Below, one piece after another: positions 2,568 through 13,684 of a stretch of DNA of 64,000 bases; position 1 is the stretch's first letter, and each line of letters opens with the position of its first letter. The translations under genes and the position numbers were made by a program. Source of the DNA: a virus. A model generated the notes under the pieces. That model saw nothing but the letters and a program-made list of their open reading frames with translations, did not search any database and was not told the origin of the DNA. The stretch is from UHGV virus genome UHGV-0139776; one strand, given 5' to 3'.

Positions 2568-3407
2568 TCACGCATCGCTATCCAACAGCAAATCATCTGC
2601 GCGGGTGCGATCAAACGTAGGCGTTGCTTTCACAATAGTGCCGCCCGGCGTTGCAGTGATCGGGGCGTTAATCGACGTAACTTCAGTAAGCGAAGTTGTA
2701 TCCGAAGTTTCAAACCAGCAGAATGCTTTTTCGGTATCAGAAATCTCATTCAAAGTGATCATGTCGGCCTGTTCATTTACAACAACCGACAAATAGAGCG
2801 TAAGCCCATCAAACACTATATGCAGTGGCAGTAGAGGCTTTACGAACTGATTAAACTTTCTGAGAATTTCTTCTGTAATTGCGGACTGATCTATCGTTCC
2901 AGTAATACCCATTGTCCGGGCCAGGTCGTTTATGGGAATACTGATCATTCCTCTGGAAGTCAGAAACATCTCACCGAATGTGCCGCCGGTGGTTTCCAGT
3001 GTGCTTTCTGGAATCAGGACCGTGCCATAGGGATGACGTTCAAAGTCCACCGGAGCATATATGGGATCCCATAAAACCGATATACCGTTAAATTCGCGAT
3101 AAATTGTCTGGTTTATAGGGCGTTCAGTACCCTTAAAATGGATCTCATCAAACCGCTGTTGTAACAACATCGGAACGGAAGATGAATTCGACGTTCTGAT
3201 AGTAAAAAACTGGCCAAGTTCATTTGTCCTGGTCTCCAGATCCTCCTTGCTCATGGAGAAAATAGACTTCCGGTTGGTAATTCGCTCCAACCATGGGTCA
3301 ACAAAGGTGTCCATCATTGACTGAACCAAATCAGCCAATGATTTATAGAGCAATGACTTTTGCTTAGCTGATGTAAGCCGGTTATTAAACCAGGAACGTT
3401 GCATCAC
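2568..3407 (-). CDS. baseplate/tail structural protein, 279 aa
   Basis: ORF in the baseplate operon, 4-bp overlap with the upstream gene. Confidence 0.4.
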   Translation of the reverse strand: MMQRSWFNNRLTSAKQKSLLYKSLADLVQSMMDTFVDPWLERITNRKSIFSMSKEDLETRTNELGQFFTIRTSNSSSVPMLLQQRFDEIHFKGTERPINQTIYREFNGISVLWDPIYAPVDFERHPYGTVLIPESTLETTGGTFGEMFLTSRGMISIPINDLARTMGITGTIDQSAITEEILRKFNQFVKPLLPLHIVFDGLTLYLSVVVNEQADMITLNEISDTEKAFCWFETSDTTSLTEVTSINAPITATPGGTIVKATPTFDRTRADDLLLDSDA

Positions 3408-4837: not shown

Positions 4838-5193
4838 AGCACCACGTCCTGTGTGATAGTTATATCCCTGATACGAATGGATATTTTCAACTTATCAAAA
4901 GCATCTCCCTCGGCTACTGACAAGCCAGAAATCGGTATGTCAGGTAAATCTACCGTCAGTTTTTGCAACAGCATTGCCTCAACCGCAATTTGAACATGCG
5001 ACAAGTTGGTCGGTTCGTGTTTAAACTGCGGTAAAACATTGCCCCATGACGGATCTCCGTATACCTCACCCTGATAAGTGTTTAGCCACTCATATAAACG
5101 AGCGCCCCAGGCCTCCTCCTGGGACTCATACGTTTTTACGCCGGATAACTCCAGCGTCAGCAAAGGATCAATTTCGTTATTGTTGGCCATCAA
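4834..5193 (-). CDS. putative baseplate assembly protein (GPW/gp25-like size), 119 aa
   Basis: Small ORF translationally coupled between sit and the J-like gene. Confidence 0.35.
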   Translation of the reverse strand: MMANNNEIDPLLTLELSGVKTYESQEEAWGARLYEWLNTYQGEVYGDPSWGNVLPQFKHEPTNLSHVQIAVEAMLLQKLTVDLPDIPISGLSVAEGDAFDKLKISIRIRDITITQDVVL

Positions 5194-8100
5194 TCAACTC
5201 TCGCGTAGTCATTCATCAACGGATCATCAATTGACAGTGGTACCGTGCGCATAACGCCCGGCTGAGGCGTGCTGACCTTTACGACAGTTCCCTGGCCTTT
5301 CGCCGAGTCTTTGGTGTGCTCTTCAATCCTGGCAAGCAATGAGGTCATCTGCGCAAACAGCCGCTTCGTTTCACCATCAAGTGAAACGGTATTATCAGCC
5401 AACTGCATTGTCGGCTTGGCACCGGAACCGCCAAGGTCACTAATAACCTGCCCGTCTATCTGCATACGACCGGTTGGTTGCTGCAAATCGTTGGCGGCAG
5501 TCGTCACCTGGGACGTGGAGGCTGGTTCAGGCGCATTATTTTTCCGCATCCCCGGCGAGTTGCGGAGTTTATCGAATAGTCCATCAATCCCCATTTGTGC
5601 GCCGAGTTGGTCAAAGTAACTTGAGTTGCTGGCCACCGGACGCGCCTCTTCAACTGGCATCGGAGTATCAACATACACATTGCCAGCTGCTGTTGCGGTC
5701 CCCTTCCCTCGTGCACGTTCTTCGAGCGTTCCCTGAACGACTTCCCGACGCATACCCCGGCCATTCATGAATTTGTTGACCAGATCGTTAACGCCAACAG
5801 CATTGCCGATTTTGTCTACCAGACCGCCTTTCTCAAACGGGCTATCACCAGGGGTAAACGCCAGACCAGTAGACTGATCGATAACGGCGTTATCAGGCAG
5901 TTGTCCCCTCACTCCATATTGCGCCCCACCCTGTGCTCCTGCCCCAGGTGTATAGATTTCACCACCTAAATAGCGAGCACGATGAGTATTGACCTTGATC
6001 GCGTACTCACGGTTTTCCTTCGATAAGTCACCGGTGCCTTTTTTCCACTTATTAATAGTGCCAAACCCAGCGTTATATGCAGTGATGGCCTCGTTTAAGT
6101 CTCCATTGGCTTGCTTCAGATACTTGCTCATGAGAAGAGCCGCAGCTTCTGCCGATTTCACAGGATCAAACGATTCACCTTCAGCTAAGCCAGTCTCTTC
6201 ACGAGCAATGCCCGTGAACTGAAACATTCCTAGAGCACCAGTTTGGGATTTTGCGTATGGATTACCACCAGATTCAGTTGCAGCAATCGCGTAAAGAGTG
6301 CCTTCAGGAAGACCATATTTATTCTCTAGTTCAGCAAAATACGGAGCTAACTTATCGAGATTTGCCTTACCTTCAGCGCCAAGGCTTCCGACTTTTACAT
6401 CTAAGTTGCCATTATTGTAGGTATCAGCAGCTTTCTGAATGTCATTCCCAGTGCCGGTGGTATTACGCGACGATGATGACGAGCTATTTTGTCCAATAGC
6501 TGAATCAATTTTCCGCACCGCGCTATTGCCCGTTTCTACGGCATTTGCATTGATAATCTGATTGGCAGTTTCTTTAACTGTTTTATTGCTATCTTTCGCC
6601 GTGTCCAGTGCCGCATTTATCACGCGGGTAGCAATATTAGTCTGTTTAGCATCGGATTCAGTTTTAGAATCAGATGTCTCCTGGTGGCTATTAACCGGAG
6701 CTTTTAACTCTGGAGTGATTTCTTTTGCATTAGCCTCGCCGATCGGATTGGGTATTTTTGATACAATCATTGCCGCTGGGGTATTTTTAACGGCATCAAC
6801 CGCTGCATCTAATGCTTTACCGGGTAAATTTTTAACCCCATCCCAAATATTACCAGCCGCCTCTTTAATGTGTTTCCCTGGGTTCTTAATGAAGTCAATT
6901 GCACTATCAATTGCATCACTGAAAACCTGTTTCAGGTTATCGACAGTAAAGAAGTCTTTTATGGCATCCAGCTTTTCAAGCAACTTATTAGATGTATCGC
7001 TAAACCATGCTGAAACAGCATCACCAATCTTTGCTGTGTAATCATCGAACTTGGTAGAAATGGTGTCGCCAAGGTTAGAAATATATGTTTCTAAGTTGGT
7101 AACCCCGCTATCAATGGCCTGGGCAATACTTTCCGTCGAAAATGATTGCAACATATTGCCGATATCCTCAAATCCAAGTGATTTGAGAACATCACCAATA
7201 GCACTGCTAATACCAGATACCAGTCCCCCCAAATCAAGAACATTGGCTAACGTATAAGCGGCTTTTTGCTGGAATGATGGATCTTGTCCTGATTTAAGCC
7301 CAAACGCTCGACGTTGCGCTTCTGTATCATTCCAACCGGTTACCGCATCATAAATACCTCCAGCCACTGTGCCGACTAGGGGAATTGCGCGTAACGCCCC
7401 TTTACCAACTGCCTTTAATCCAAGTTTACCTGCTGCCCGGGCAGCCAAATCTCCGCCTTCATGAGCGAGAGTCTTCTTGCCACCACCGCGTAGCATTCCT
7501 ACAAGTTTCTTTGCCCCCAGAGCGCCAAAAGCGAGTGCTCCAGCTTTTTTCAGCATGCCACGCCCCATTAACAACGACGCGACGCCACCGGCCCCCTTCC
7601 CTAACAGGCTAAATAGTTTGGACAGCAAGCCGCCCTTCTTTTTACCGGTGTTTTTGGCTATCTGATCAAGGGCGCGGAGAATCTTGTCATTGCCCTCTTT
7701 AATTTCGCTGGTCTGCTCCTGAAGTTCCTGAACCGTCCGTTTTTGGGTGTTAACCTGAACGACATCGGCACTATTTTGCGATTTACGCCTAAAAAAACCT
7801 TTTCTACGGCTGTTATCGTCATTGCCACGAATCACATCGGCAATAGACTTTCTGGCACCATTAAGCGATCCACCAACTTCTTTTGATATCCCGCCAAGCT
7901 CCTTCCCTGCTGCCCACAATGGACCAGCAACGGCATAACCTAACGCATCGACGGCACGAGTCTCTGAAGGGTTACCTATGCCTTCAGCTACTTTTGACAG
8001 TTTTTTTAATAAACCTGATTCAGCATTTAGACGCTCATCATCCTCTTTGCGCCTAGCCTTTTCAGCACGTTCAGCACGGGCATCTTCCGCTGCGGCCTTA

Positions 8101-8582
8101 CTCCCTGACTTTCCAATAAAACGACCACGCGCATCGCGTTGGTTTTGGCTTTTTTGCGCACCGCCTTTTTGACCGAACATTTCGCGAGCGTGTTCGGCTG
8201 CTTCGGTCCGTTGCGCCTTTACATCTTCTGTTATAGCCTTCTTGCGTCGTTTTTTACCCTTTCGCGTAGTTGATTTGGCCTGCGGTTCCTGTAGAGCAAC
8301 ATCCTCCTGAACTACACGAGAAACGTCCCCTAAATTAAGCCGTTTCATTGCCTCAACAATAGGGTCCACTGATGGCGCATTGGCCACAAAGTCTGGCCGG
8401 GAATTTTCGATTGTGCGATTTAATGCCGACACACTGCGAGAGACAGGATCAACTGTAGCAACTCGCCCCCCTTTCAAATCTTCAACGGCTTCCCGAATAC
8501 CTGCAAGCTCTTCCAGCTCTTTTGCGCTGGCGGTTTCAACCGTCCTTATCACATCGTCAATGTTGGCGTTTTTTCTTTCCAT
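5190..8582 (-). CDS. sit: tape-measure-like injection protein with a soluble lytic transglycosylase domain (Sit-like), 1130 aa
   Basis: SLT motif region LENKYGLPEGTLYAIAATESGGNPYAKSQTGALGMFQFTGIAREETGL...AYNAGFG; Gly/Ala/Lys-rich low-complexity segments; size matches my recollection of P1 Sit. Confidence 0.8.
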   Translation of the reverse strand: MERKNANIDDVIRTVETASAKELEELAGIREAVEDLKGGRVATVDPVSRSVSALNRTIENSRPDFVANAPSVDPIVEAMKRLNLGDVSRVVQEDVALQEPQAKSTTRKGKKRRKKAITEDVKAQRTEAAEHAREMFGQKGGAQKSQNQRDARGRFIGKSGSKAAAEDARAERAEKARRKEDDERLNAESGLLKKLSKVAEGIGNPSETRAVDALGYAVAGPLWAAGKELGGISKEVGGSLNGARKSIADVIRGNDDNSRRKGFFRRKSQNSADVVQVNTQKRTVQELQEQTSEIKEGNDKILRALDQIAKNTGKKKGGLLSKLFSLLGKGAGGVASLLMGRGMLKKAGALAFGALGAKKLVGMLRGGGKKTLAHEGGDLAARAAGKLGLKAVGKGALRAIPLVGTVAGGIYDAVTGWNDTEAQRRAFGLKSGQDPSFQQKAAYTLANVLDLGGLVSGISSAIGDVLKSLGFEDIGNMLQSFSTESIAQAIDSGVTNLETYISNLGDTISTKFDDYTAKIGDAVSAWFSDTSNKLLEKLDAIKDFFTVDNLKQVFSDAIDSAIDFIKNPGKHIKEAAGNIWDGVKNLPGKALDAAVDAVKNTPAAMIVSKIPNPIGEANAKEITPELKAPVNSHQETSDSKTESDAKQTNIATRVINAALDTAKDSNKTVKETANQIINANAVETGNSAVRKIDSAIGQNSSSSSSRNTTGTGNDIQKAADTYNNGNLDVKVGSLGAEGKANLDKLAPYFAELENKYGLPEGTLYAIAATESGGNPYAKSQTGALGMFQFTGIAREETGLAEGESFDPVKSAEAAALLMSKYLKQANGDLNEAITAYNAGFGTINKWKKGTGDLSKENREYAIKVNTHRARYLGGEIYTPGAGAQGGAQYGVRGQLPDNAVIDQSTGLAFTPGDSPFEKGGLVDKIGNAVGVNDLVNKFMNGRGMRREVVQGTLEERARGKGTATAAGNVYVDTPMPVEEARPVASNSSYFDQLGAQMGIDGLFDKLRNSPGMRKNNAPEPASTSQVTTAANDLQQPTGRMQIDGQVISDLGGSGAKPTMQLADNTVSLDGETKRLFAQMTSLLARIEEHTKDSAKGQGTVVKVSTPQPGVMRTVPLSIDDPLMNDYARVD

Positions 8583-10181: not shown

Positions 10182-10772
<591 letters not shown>

Positions 10773-10806
10773 TTAACCGATTCTACGAGTAGTCATTTGT
10801 GACAGG

Positions 10807-11283
10807 TCATTTTGCGCGCTTCAGGCAGCCATCTTCAGGTGCCGCGTTGAAAAGCGCTGCGGCCTTACGTAGCGTAAATGTTGCGATTTTTTTTCCGTCT
10901 ACATATGCATCGAATGATTTAACTTCCATATCAGGGGTATCTGACCAAAAACCATACCAGTAACTATCACCTATAGAGGAACCGATAGAACTGATCGGAT
11001 ATTCATCATCACCAACTTTCAGTGTTATTTGTTCTTTTTCAGCATCAAATGACTCACCACCTGGTTCTGTTTTCATGAGTGTGAGTAGTCGTGTTCCTAC
11101 TTGATTGGGATCCGTATTATTAAATCCAACATCGCACTCAAATGTAAGCGTATAATTATCTTTGCTGGAAACAGCATAAGAACGAACACCATGAGTCTCG
11201 CCGGTTGACCATTTGCTTACATTTGCCATTGACGAAAAAGGAGTAAGCAAAGCAAGAATTAGAAAAAATCGTTTGATGCGCAT
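10807..11283 (-). CDS. secreted/periplasmic protein with signal peptide (MRIKRFFLILALLTPFSSMA), sim region
   Basis: Preferred start ATG at 11283 with an AAAGGAG RBS; hydrophobic N-terminal signal sequence. Confidence 0.5.
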   Translation of the reverse strand: MRIKRFFLILALLTPFSSMANVSKWSTGETHGVRSYAVSSKDNYTLTFECDVGFNNTDPNQVGTRLLTLMKTEPGGESFDAEKEQITLKVGDDEYPISSIGSSIGDSYWYGFWSDTPDMEVKSFDAYVDGKKIATFTLRKAAALFNAAPEDGCLKRAK

Positions 11284-11347
11284 TAATTTATCTCCTTTGG
11301 ATATTAACAATTATTATCAATATTTTAATTAATTACCCATCATATAT

Positions 11348-11995
11348 TTACCATTCATAGGGTAAATTAAGCGCTTTTAAACCTTGCTGGAAGGTATTAA
11401 GTGAGCCGTTCTTTTGTTGTTCCATTTTTTCGCGTGCCGCTTTCTCATACTGCTCCATCCGTTGGTTATACTCTTGCAATTCTTCTGGAGAGAGGTTTCC
11501 CATTGGGGAGTTTGTACCCGGCCCCCTGGCCCGCTCTTCAAGCGTACCCTGAACGTTTTGATGGCGCATTCCTGGGGCATTTCTGATTGAGTCAATGCCA
11601 TTTCTTCCAACATCTTCTTTATTAACGGCATTGCTCGCCACCAGCACCCCCCAGCTAGGGATAGCAAAATCAGGAGCGGTTTCGCATGCCTTTACCATAT
11701 AATCGAAAGAGCTTCGATTGATCTCGTTTGCGTCGGGATTTAATAGGCGAGAATATTGATATTTAGCATTTTCGTTGGTTGCGACTTTATACAGTTCTTG
11801 CTGCACCATCGCTTCAGAAAGTTTAAGGCGTTTCATATCTGACAGTAACTTCTTGCGCATGGATTCGTCTTGACTGACAGCAAAGCCGTAAACGTGCCCA
11901 AGGTATTTCGTATAATCGGTACAAATCTCCTTTACGCTTGATGCTGCATTAACAGTCCCAGCCATAAATAATAACGGTAGTAATAGTTTTCTCAT
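11348..11995 (-). CDS. Sim-like periplasmic protein (superinfection-exclusion candidate) with signal peptide MRKLLLPLLFMAGTVNA
   Basis: Start ATG at 11995 with a GGTGAGG RBS; signal peptide; position upstream of c4/icd/ant as for P1 sim; C-terminal motif shared with Sit. Confidence 0.45.
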   Translation of the reverse strand: MRKLLLPLLFMAGTVNAASSVKEICTDYTKYLGHVYGFAVSQDESMRKKLLSDMKRLKLSEAMVQQELYKVATNENAKYQYSRLLNPDANEINRSSFDYMVKACETAPDFAIPSWGVLVASNAVNKEDVGRNGIDSIRNAPGMRHQNVQGTLEERARGPGTNSPMGNLSPEELQEYNQRMEQYEKAAREKMEQQKNGSLNTFQQGLKALNLPYEW

Positions 11996-12091
11996 TATAA
12001 CCTCACCTGCCTTATAACTCATTTAGGGTACATATTTTCGCCTTTAAAAAAAAGAGGTTATTAGATCCAATTGTGTATTTATTAAGCATGC

Positions 12092-12108
12092 AATGCTCTA
12101 ATAAATTT
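12092..12108 (+). promoter_or_regulatory. C1-repressor operator-like site (16/17 match to ATTGCTCTAATAAATTT)
   Basis: Motif match; lies between the sim-like gene and the c4/icd/ant locus. Confidence 0.6.
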
Positions 12109-12295
12109 GTATTTTTAAGTCGCGAATGCTATCTTTTCGCATCATATTGACCTTTTAATCGTTCAGGCTTATAGTTCCGCCGTCGTAGCAAATTCTGCGA
12201 CCGGGTTTAGCAGCCTGAATGATTGTGCGGACAGCCGCAGATATCCGATATTGCGGTATTTTTGTGTCCGTAAAACCGCGTTACGCCCAAATTAT

Positions 12296-12372
12296 GGTGG
12301 GGCGTGATGGGGAGGCTTCGGCCTGCTGGTTTCACAATCGCCAGTCTGCTAACCCCGTCACGTCCTGCCACC
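12296..12372 (+). ncRNA. c4: candidate c4 antisense RNA (immunity I)
   Basis: Segment containing CACAATC and CTGCTAA, complementary to the repeated GATTGTG / TTAGCAG elements at 12205-12227 and 12373-12414 (the latter overlapping the icd RBS). Boundaries are approximate. Confidence 0.4.
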
Positions 12373-12422
12373 TGTTTAGCAGCGGGTAGCAGGTTGTTAA
12401 ACCTGATTGTGAGGCCGTAACT

Positions 12423-12644
12423 ATGGTTAATGCCAATCCTTGCGCACGCCCAGAATTCATCTGGCGTTTCTATTCCTGTAAAAAACACCACTATCACTTC
12501 GTTATCGCAGCAACTGAAGACGAAGCACGCTCTCAATTGCCTGATGGTCCCTGCATTTTTACTGCCCGTTTTTCTACTAACTCGCGCAATTCACTTAGTT
12601 ACTGGAACCTCCCCTTCTCTGCTGACGTTCAGGGGGTTTTATGA
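12423..12644 (+). CDS. icd: Icd-like protein, 73 aa, translationally coupled to ant
   Basis: 73-aa ORF; its stop overlaps the ant ATG (ATGA); RBS TGAGG overlaps the b2 target element. Confidence 0.55.
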   Translation: MVNANPCARPEFIWRFYSCKKHHYHFVIAATEDEARSQLPDGPCIFTARFSTNSRNSLSYWNLPFSADVQGVL

Positions 12645-13684
12645 AAAAACCTCTCGTCACCCGTAATGAAATAGCCGAAGCGATCGCCCTGCATACTGCC
12701 TGTATGCCGACACGGGAGATCCCCGGCGCAATTGCCAACTATTTCATGATAACCAGGCGTTTTTATACCCGAACAGATAAGGCTGTGATCAACAGGCTAC
12801 TGATAGCCGAGATCAGGGATTATTTGATTGAACAAGGACGTCTACGTTACGCAACGGTGGCAGCAGAAATGAGAAAGGAGGCACATAGAATGACCAGTAA
12901 TAATTTGAATGTTAAAAAACCAGCACCTGTTGCTTCAGCAACGTCAGCACCAGCCGTGAATGTCATCCCCACCACCGGAGACACAATCGACAGCCTGACA
13001 CTGTTAAAGATGGTCAATGAAGCGCGTAAGTTATGTGGGGAACCAGAGGTTCGGAACAACAAATTCATCGAAAAAATACTCGACGAATTAGAAGGTGAGG
13101 ACGGTTACACAAAAAGTGCAACCGTGCCGCCAGGTGGCGGTACGCCTATGGTTGTCATAACCATGACCTACAAACAAGCCCTGCGAGTCGCCGCGCGCGA
13201 ATCGAAAGCGGTCCGCCGTTCGCTGATCGACAAACTGGAAGAATTGCAGCAGGCAAACTCACCTACCCCATCGATCCCCCAAACATTACCAGAAGCTCTA
13301 CGCCTGGCTGCCGAGTTGGCAGAACAGAAAATGCAGTTGGAACAACAGCTGGTGGCCGCAGCCCCTAAAGTCGATTTTGCCGACCGGGTATCAGCGGCTA
13401 ATGGAATCCTGATCGGGAACTTTGCAAAGGTCGTTGGACTTAAGCAAAACGCCCTTTTCTCATGGTTGCGCCAGAACGGCATTCTCATGGCTTTTGGTGC
13501 GCGCAAAAACGTACCGCGCCAGCAGTACATCAACGCCGGATATTTCACGGTGAAAGAAGTGGTGCTGGATGATGAAAATGGCTACCAGATACGGCTGACG
13601 CCCCAATTAACGGGTAAAGGCCAGCAGTGGTTAACTCGCAAGCTACTTGATGCTGGTTTGTTAAAACCAGTAGCAATAGGTTAA
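12641..13684 (+). CDS. ant1: antirepressor Ant (C-terminal KilAC/Ant domain), 347 aa
   Basis: C-terminal IPQTLPEALRLAAELAEQK...GKGQQWL motif block shared with the next gene; an internal in-frame start (Ant2) is possible. Confidence 0.8.
   Translation: MKKPLVTRNEIAEAIALHTACMPTREIPGAIANYFMITRRFYTRTDKAVINRLLIAEIRDYLIEQGRLRYATVAAEMRKEAHRMTSNNLNVKKPAPVASATSAPAVNVIPTTGDTIDSLTLLKMVNEARKLCGEPEVRNNKFIEKILDELEGEDGYTKSATVPPGGGTPMVVITMTYKQALRVAARESKAVRRSLIDKLEELQQANSPTPSIPQTLPEALRLAAELAEQKMQLEQQLVAAAPKVDFADRVSAANGILIGNFAKVVGLKQNALFSWLRQNGILMAFGARKNVPRQQYINAGYFTVKEVVLDDENGYQIRLTPQLTGKGQQWLTRKLLDAGLLKPVAIG

Follow-up and report, generated by a model that had tools for sequence, protein, structure and literature searches.

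Introduction

HK97 gp15 is a phage-encoded envelope protein that stops genome delivery after adsorption, at the tape-measure step, and Spackle of T4, a small, secreted, helical phage protein, inhibits the tail lysozyme gp5 in the periplasm. Precedents for exclusion directed at a tape-measure protein exist: Imm of T4 binds gp29 (bioRxiv 10.64898/2026.03.06.709160), and another case is Ltp of Streptococcus phage TP-J34 (PMC3952083). How the genome of contractile-tailed phages crosses the periplasm and the inner membrane is still poorly understood. In P1, the tape measure is Sit (PMC9024508). The sim (superimmunity) region is one of eight hypervariable regions in P1-like elements (PMC9603915), and simABC are non-essential (PMC10695390). 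In this study, we analysed virus genome UHGV-0139776, a stretch of 64,000 nucleotides that is called the window below. A gene of its sim locus (11348..11995, minus strand) encodes a secreted protein of 215 amino acids (aa), and this protein shares a segment of roughly 45 residues with Sit of the same window. A preliminary description, made from the letters of the window, had named the protein Sim-like and had proposed that it imitates a piece of the ejection protein of the phage.

Results

A segment shared by the secreted protein and Sit

BLASTP aligned residues 131-177 of the 215-aa open reading frame (ORF), counted from an in-frame ATG at 12022, with residues 927-969 of Sit (23/47 identical, E=7e-9). 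When the ORF was searched with tblastn against the six frames of the 64-kb window, the same region of sit (copy 1) was recovered at E=1.8e-7 and a second copy at E=0.19. The family profiles cross-match at the same positions: phrog_2533, the Sit family, is matched by the ORF with E=9e-8, and phrog_3933, the family of the ORF, by Sit with E=7.8e-6. The match of the ORF to phrog_2533 is confined to residues 138-180 (profile positions 929-972), and no SLT match was found in the ORF. On the minus strand, the motif reads IRNAPGMRHQNVQGTLEERARGPGT in the ORF (11513..11587), FMNGRGMRREVVQGTLEERARGKGT in copy 1 (5697..5771) and LRNSPGMRKNNAPEP in copy 2 (5523..5567). Homology extends from about VASN/G-I-D to M-G-N-[LV], that is, over roughly 45 residues (44-48). 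Copy 2 (VASN..GID..RN.PGMR, Sit 983-1017) is weak when taken alone and is supported mainly by the recurring RN[AS]PGMR pattern. In the 25-codon core, 51/75 nucleotides (68%) and 12/25 third positions are identical.

The presence of the motif in both the secreted protein and Sit, as first described, is thus confirmed, and both Sit copies had been placed correctly to within about 20 bases. Of the two copies claimed, the first is significant and the second is weak by itself. The core of the motif stood, but the homology is longer than had been noted, and the nucleotide identity had been overestimated at about 75%. A comparison of profiles and predicted structures, suggested at the same time, gave family profiles that match each other and a motif that lies in regions of low predicted local distance difference test (pLDDT) scores in both proteins.

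The motif is highly specific. A profile of 52 positions was built from 12 segments of both protein families and searched against 1.84 billion protein representatives, with a cut-off of E<=0.001; only 11 proteins were matched. These are Sit-type tape-measure proteins, relatives of the ORF, fragments of both and one spurious repeat protein. Among them are a divergent Sit-type protein of 1124 aa (DKARNAPGMRHQVATGSMADRAYGMGT), a distant Sit-type protein of 1367 aa (P0161) with two tandem AEGMRHQV copies (AEGMRHQVSAGTLAARS and AEGMRHQVATGEG), and a divergent ORF relative of 176 aa (P0160, MENAPGMRHQAVKGSMAERARGDGT) that ends 15 residues past the motif. Duplication of the motif therefore appears, from these sequences, to have happened more than once. 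No host protein and no other secreted protein with the motif was found by the profile among these representatives. The objection that the motif could be a common low-complexity element does not hold, since all matches but the spurious one are Sit-type proteins or relatives of the ORF. A 141-aa segment of Sit gave seven fragments only in a word-indexed protein search, and with tblastn against phages it matched P1-like phages and Cronobacter phage JK004 only. P0160, the most divergent family member, could not be linked to a sit gene, as its contigs span only about 1 kb, and the contig of the divergent Sit protein P0158 contains no sim locus. In the literature searched, we found no mention of a motif common to the SimA family and Sit, nor of any full-length SimA family.

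Age and origin of the sharing

Between the two copies within the window, the proportions of nonsynonymous (pN) and synonymous (pS) differences in the 25-codon core are 0.22 and 0.71, respectively. Across all pairs compared, be it within the secreted family, among Sit proteins or between the two copies of a single genome, pS is 0.46-1.04 and pN 0.11-0.47. Because synonymous sites have reached saturation and the amino acids are nevertheless retained, the shared segment is, judged on substitution patterns, old and held by purifying selection, and not the product of a recent copy or of gene conversion; the shared ancestry proposed at the outset is borne out. The accessory gene probably received the segment from sit, because the motif is present in every Sit homologue examined and the secreted family occurs in a subset of P1-like elements. 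With 0.54, the G+C content of the module equals that of sit, and the other parts of the gene have 0.41-0.44. This excess may be explained by amino-acid content (Gly/Arg/Ala/Pro).

The 215-aa gene is a full-length simA

The 215-aa ORF matches phrog_3933 ('simA domain protein') over residues 10-224 with E=4.8e-137. P1 SimA has 52 aa, of which the first 45 are identical to the ORF read from the ATG at 12022. At the DNA level, P1 and the window are near-identical from about 11860 rightwards and unrelated leftwards. Given these 45 shared residues and the break of the DNA alignment at about 11860, P1 simA is, by this comparison, a 5' remnant of the 215-aa gene, and its annotation is corrected accordingly. 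In place of the rest of the gene and the next gene, P1 has simB-simC, and P7 encodes two other secreted proteins. In the alignment of 11857..12022 of the window with 2885..3043 of locus L001, identity stops at codon 46, where the simB-simC cassette starts. The designation Sim-like had to be abandoned: the ORF is a full-length simA and has no homology to SimC (BLASTP, best E=29) or to SimB. No NCBIfam family was found for it. The label 'exclusion protein' comes solely from its position in the sim locus.

A strong Shine-Dalgarno sequence, AGGTGAGG, precedes the ATG at 11995 by 5 nt, and the reading frame from this ATG comprises 215 codons and a stop (phrog_3933). If translation began at the in-frame ATG at 12022 instead, the protein would have 224 aa. 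The 215-aa form starts MRKLLLPLLFMAGTVNA/ASS. As read from the sequence, MRKLLLPLLFMAGTVNA (11945..11995, minus strand) is a Sec signal peptide with predicted cleavage after VNA. It has a positive n-region, a hydrophobic core of 12 residues and V-N-A at -3 to -1; a lipobox cysteine is absent. The signal peptide is the sole hydrophobic stretch of the protein, and neither a transmembrane helix nor a lipobox was found in the sequence, while the AlphaFold2 (AF2) model shows a soluble helical domain. Because the signal peptide is typical and a lipobox is lacking, the 215-aa protein is probably a soluble periplasmic protein, in agreement with the secreted, periplasmic location given in the preliminary description.

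The N-terminal domain (residues 18-128; 11612..11944, minus strand) is all-helical and conserved, with two invariant cysteines. Block-mean pLDDT is 90-96 for residues 21-120, and in an alignment of 19 family members it is the best conserved part of the protein. A PDB search gave no fold match for this domain, and the family profile had a single, non-significant match among PDB sequences (E=0.023). A PTP-like phytase (PF14566) was considered and rejected, as the Pfam score was below the gathering threshold, the catalytic CX5R loop of these enzymes is absent and the fold is not of their alpha/beta class.

The helical domain is followed by a linker that carries the probably Sit-derived module (SNAVNKEDVGRNGIDSIRNAPGMRHQNVQGTLEERARGPGTNSPMGNL, 11492..11635, minus strand), within which the 25-residue core lies. 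The AF2 model has low confidence in this linker (pLDDT 47-59). A variant of N-x-x-G-M-R-[HQ]-Q occurs in 19/19 aligned members; N and R, and nearly so G and Q, of N..GMR.Q are conserved. The motif forms one conserved island, and the remaining linker is variable and contains indels. Its second half, V-x-G-T-L-x-x-R-A-x-G, is present in some of the members, and others have cysteine-containing tails instead. In the window, the variable C-terminal tail (11372..11488, minus strand) is modelled as a long helix (residues 170-208); in other members it is replaced by cysteine-containing tails or absent, with at least three alternative tails. Natural short forms of 163 aa, 176 aa (P0160) and 179 aa stop at the motif or at most about 20 residues past it. 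Because the short forms end near the motif and because linker and tails vary, the conserved unit is, in this alignment, the helical domain plus the motif. Just downstream of the tail helix, 11351..11371 codes for the C-terminus ...NLPYEW. The ending LPYEW is common to the 215-aa protein and the Salmonella homologue P0011. We take its aromatic C-terminal residue to resemble the C-terminal signal of outer-membrane proteins that is recognised by periplasmic PDZ proteins.

Sit and its module

The sit gene (5190..8582, minus strand) encodes 1130 aa, with a full-length match to phrog_2533 and a Pfam SLT domain at residues 748-857. A search of Sit against PDB sequences returned SLT domains only. The architecture of Sit-type tape-measure proteins (a long helical N-terminal ruler, a glycine-rich hydrophobic segment, the SLT lytic transglycosylase domain and a conserved C-terminal domain) is not shared by the 215-aa ORF. 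Copy 1 lies in a conserved module behind the SLT domain (Sit residues about 900-970; 5673..5885, minus strand). This module is 63-70% identical to that of divergent Sit proteins, which are 52-57% identical over their whole length and 17-50% in the linker next to the module. In L033, it is 100% identical despite replacement of the SLT domain by a 40%-identical variant. In the AF2 model, the SLT domain is modelled well and the module has a block-mean pLDDT of 34-56.

The motif is also retained in divergent Sit proteins. Lineages outside E. coli have one motif copy, and copy 2 is absent from Sit of Salmonella, Klebsiella and Cronobacter. The second, partial copy (PVASNSSYFDQLGAQMGIDGLFDKLRNSPGMRKNNAPEP, 5523..5636, minus strand) lies in an insertion of ~43 aa that is specific to Sit of the E. 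coli P1 lineage. In the Sit of a Salmonella element, the single copy (KFLSAPGMRHQVVQGTLAERAYGRGTTTTMGNV) equals the ORF motif at 21/29 positions and is closer to it than copy 1 of P1.

Two further observations concern variation within Sit. Firstly, there are two alternative SLT domains, 40% identical, of a GMFQF and a GAFQI type (L033 14579..17953 compared with 5190..8582 of the window). Their flanks are 94-100% identical, and the right junction falls in a short linker (33% identical) just before the post-SLT module, which points to domain swapping by recombination within sit. Secondly, comparison of 5523..5567 of the window with L013, L029 and L049-L057 showed that copy 2 is dimorphic in E. 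coli-type Sit and reads either FDKLRNSPGMRKNNAPEP or YDKLINARGMRSNNSPQP. About half of its residues differ, in proteins otherwise 93-99% identical over the 141-aa C-terminal segment; copy 2 is a local hypervariable spot.

The sim locus and its variants

The region around the 215-aa ORF resembles P1-type phages (genus Punavirus). For 10700..12700, Escherichia phage vB_EcoM-Ro157c2YLVW is the best match (100% coverage, 96.5% identity); P1 aligns to 47% and P7 to 36% of this interval. Gene order on the minus strand is the immunity region c4-icd-ant, a variable cassette, the late promoter LPsit, and then pmgC, tub, pmgB and sit. The site of the 215-aa gene, upstream of the late tail operon, is the hypervariable sim locus. 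The left edge of the variable cassette is marked by the LPsit counterpart (10780..10798, minus strand), which reads AAATGACTACTCGTAGAAT, exactly as LPsit does in the P1 annotation; just upstream of it, the window ceases to resemble P1 and P7. The proteins encoded by all cassettes seen at this locus begin with a signal sequence, and the P1 annotation of the locus is superimmunity. From alignment to the P1 annotation, PsimA (a predicted sigma-70 promoter) and the C1 operator Oc4 adjoin the 215-aa gene upstream, at ~12060..12108; a simple promoter scan of the window missed PsimA. As PsimA adjoins Oc4, expression of the cassette might be tied to the immunity circuit.

A large protein search found 28 related clusters; those on long contigs belong to P1-like elements (~90 kb) of Escherichia, Salmonella and Klebsiella. 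Cronobacter phage JK004 has a family member as well. In PLSDB, 267 plasmids contain at least the start of the gene, and 84 of them match at least 80% of it. Some of the remainder have the truncated form of 163 aa, and about half of the matches show the P1-type remnant only. Near-identical E. coli P1-like sequences (L074, L075) were also present in contigs assigned to 'Candidatus Paenibacillus intestinavium' and to a metagenome-assembled genome of a 'Bacillota bacterium', and a divergent Sit-type fragment (P0067, 49% identical) is labelled Bacillus altitudinis. These three host labels are probably binning or contamination errors in public assemblies.

The neighbouring gene (10807..11283, minus strand; phrog_3429) encodes a further secreted protein, of 158 aa from the ATG or 167 aa from a TTG at 11310. 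In related loci, the counterparts of this protein are labelled PF27224 (YfjT) by a precomputed annotation; those compared (L033, L079) are 27-34% identical. It adjoins the SimA-family gene in all six loci examined (the window, JK004, L033, L079, L081 and L083), and the two may work as a pair. Apart from this YfjT-like neighbour, no segment in common with the window proteins was found in SimB, SimC, Upf50.0 and Upf50.5 of P7, the 394-aa protein of L033 or the 117-aa protein of L079. In a common variant (L033, 9974..12258), the SimA-family gene stops at 163 aa, at most three residues from the end of the motif (…ERARGPGVAP); behind it lie a divergent YfjT-like gene (168 aa) and the extra gene for 394 aa. 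This variant is mostly linked to the GAFQI-type Sit (10/12).

Discussion

It is tempting to speculate that the 215-aa protein mimics Sit in the periplasm and thereby disturbs delivery of the genome, its exclusion activity being putative; we give this reading a probability of about 0.4. In such a model, tail contraction would expel Sit into the periplasm, and since Sit would be delivered there, the secreted protein would be in the right compartment to meet the partner of Sit. In the periplasm of a phage-carrying cell, it would display the Sit module in a flexible linker and might thus capture the partner that this module must engage for the genome to be delivered. The partner could be a host envelope factor, which would amount to competition by a decoy. 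It could also be Sit itself, if the module mediates self-association of Sit, resulting in dominant-negative poisoning, or it could be the SLT domain of Sit. In each case, DNA entry of P1-type phages would be blocked after adsorption, that is, by superinfection exclusion at the tape-measure step. The position of the motif in a low-confidence, probably disordered stretch of both proteins is what a binding or competition motif would need. Also in favour of mimicry are the specificity of the shared module, its retention under purifying selection despite variable linkers and tails, the natural short forms that keep it, the peak of conservation that it forms in Sit even where the SLT domain is exchanged, the signal sequences and superimmunity annotation of the locus, the precedents of Imm and Ltp, and the frequency of the full-length gene on plasmids. 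The broader claim, that this would be the first exclusion protein built on tape-measure mimicry, in which a soluble secreted copy of a linear motif poisons or out-competes incoming P1-type phages, has to be called doubtful.

Several observations weigh against mimicry. The superimmunity determinant annotated in P1 is SimC, to which the 215-aa protein is not related, and in PADLOC neither the ORF nor its neighbour had a match at E<=0.1. Family members with cysteine-containing tails retain just the first half of the motif. Sit, the one major P1 tail component missing from recent cryo-EM maps, is unresolved in the 2026 structures of P1 (PMC12810830). Co-variation between the motifs of one genome is inconsistent and only suggestive. 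For the second half of the motif, similarity is highest in the E. coli lineage (13/16, compared with 10-11). For the first half, the L083 protein agrees with its own Sit at 10/15 positions and with most others at 5-9; the L045 protein also agrees with its own Sit at 10/15, but with the Sit of L083 at 11. No such pattern was found in L041, L077 and L081. We also asked whether copy-2 alleles (RNSP or INAR) or copy-1 variants of Sit go together with the type of cassette; linkage accounts for what was seen, and there was no escape-like association beyond it.

The best surviving alternative, although we regard it as unlikely, is that the motif is a short linear docking or handling signal without any competition. 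A host chaperone, protease or similar factor of the periplasm would recognise it, Sit and the secreted protein would each depend on this factor for folding, processing or turnover, and the helical domain would do an unrelated job. The low-confidence regions in which the motif lies, its independent conservation in both lineages and the inconsistent co-variation would all fit a handling signal, as would the fact that the helical domain is the best conserved part of the protein. However, a general signal should be more widespread than the profile search indicates, with no host or other secreted protein among its matches. Moreover, two ligands of one factor in the same compartment would compete anyway.

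It is quite improbable that the module is left over from mosaic recombination, as a stretch of sit that was captured during assembly of the accessory gene in a recombination hot spot and persists as a linker without any role related to Sit. Such an origin would agree with the location in one of the eight hypervariable regions of P1-like elements, with break points of tail swaps inside or just after the motif, and with the sit-like G+C content of the module within a gene of lower G+C. Yet a neutral piece should decay, whereas here synonymous sites are saturated and G-M-R, G, R-A and G are nevertheless invariant in both proteins; the motif is also the sole conserved island in a linker rich in indels, and the G+C excess may reflect the Gly/Arg/Ala/Pro content. 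Self-protection against the lytic transglycosylase of Sit, similar to Spackle of T4 or to periplasmic immunity proteins, is a decidedly weak candidate. Here, the SLT domain of incoming or released Sit would be bound by the helical domain or by the tail, which would shield the cell wall of the carrier, and the shared module would copy a segment normally packing beside the SLT domain.

If mimicry of Sit is correct, the short list of exclusion systems with a known molecular mechanism would gain one based on mimicry or a decoy, and a first functional site on Sit needed for DNA entry would be pinpointed. P1-like phage-plasmids are common in Enterobacteriaceae, and some of the exchange of cassettes at their sim locus would then be easier to explain. 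The motif of ~45 residues, confined to Sit and the secreted protein of the sim locus, offers a defined site to mutate on both sides. Should the mechanism fail, the well-supported sharing of a module and the corrected annotation of simA as a gene remnant remain.

Among the described proteins, P1 SimA, annotated as 'putative superimmunity accessory function', is like the 215-aa gene in its start, upstream region and signal peptide, but it lacks the helical domain, the Sit-like motif and the tail. P1 Sim/SimC has the locus, the orientation and an N-terminal signal sequence in common with the 215-aa protein and differs from it in having no sequence similarity and no Sit-like segment. Spackle of T4 is likewise small, secreted and helical, and its encounter with the muralytic part of an arriving tail takes place in the periplasm; it gave no fold match to the 215-aa protein in the PDB search, and nothing points to SLT binding by the latter. 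No relationship in sequence or fold was found between the 215-aa protein and Imm, Ltp or gp15. To our knowledge, none of these three has been reported to contain a segment homologous to its target. They act at the tape-measure step, the same step as proposed here for the 215-aa protein. However, Imm, Ltp and gp15 are membrane-anchored, as transmembrane proteins or lipoproteins, whereas the 215-aa protein looks soluble and carries a copy of a tape-measure segment.
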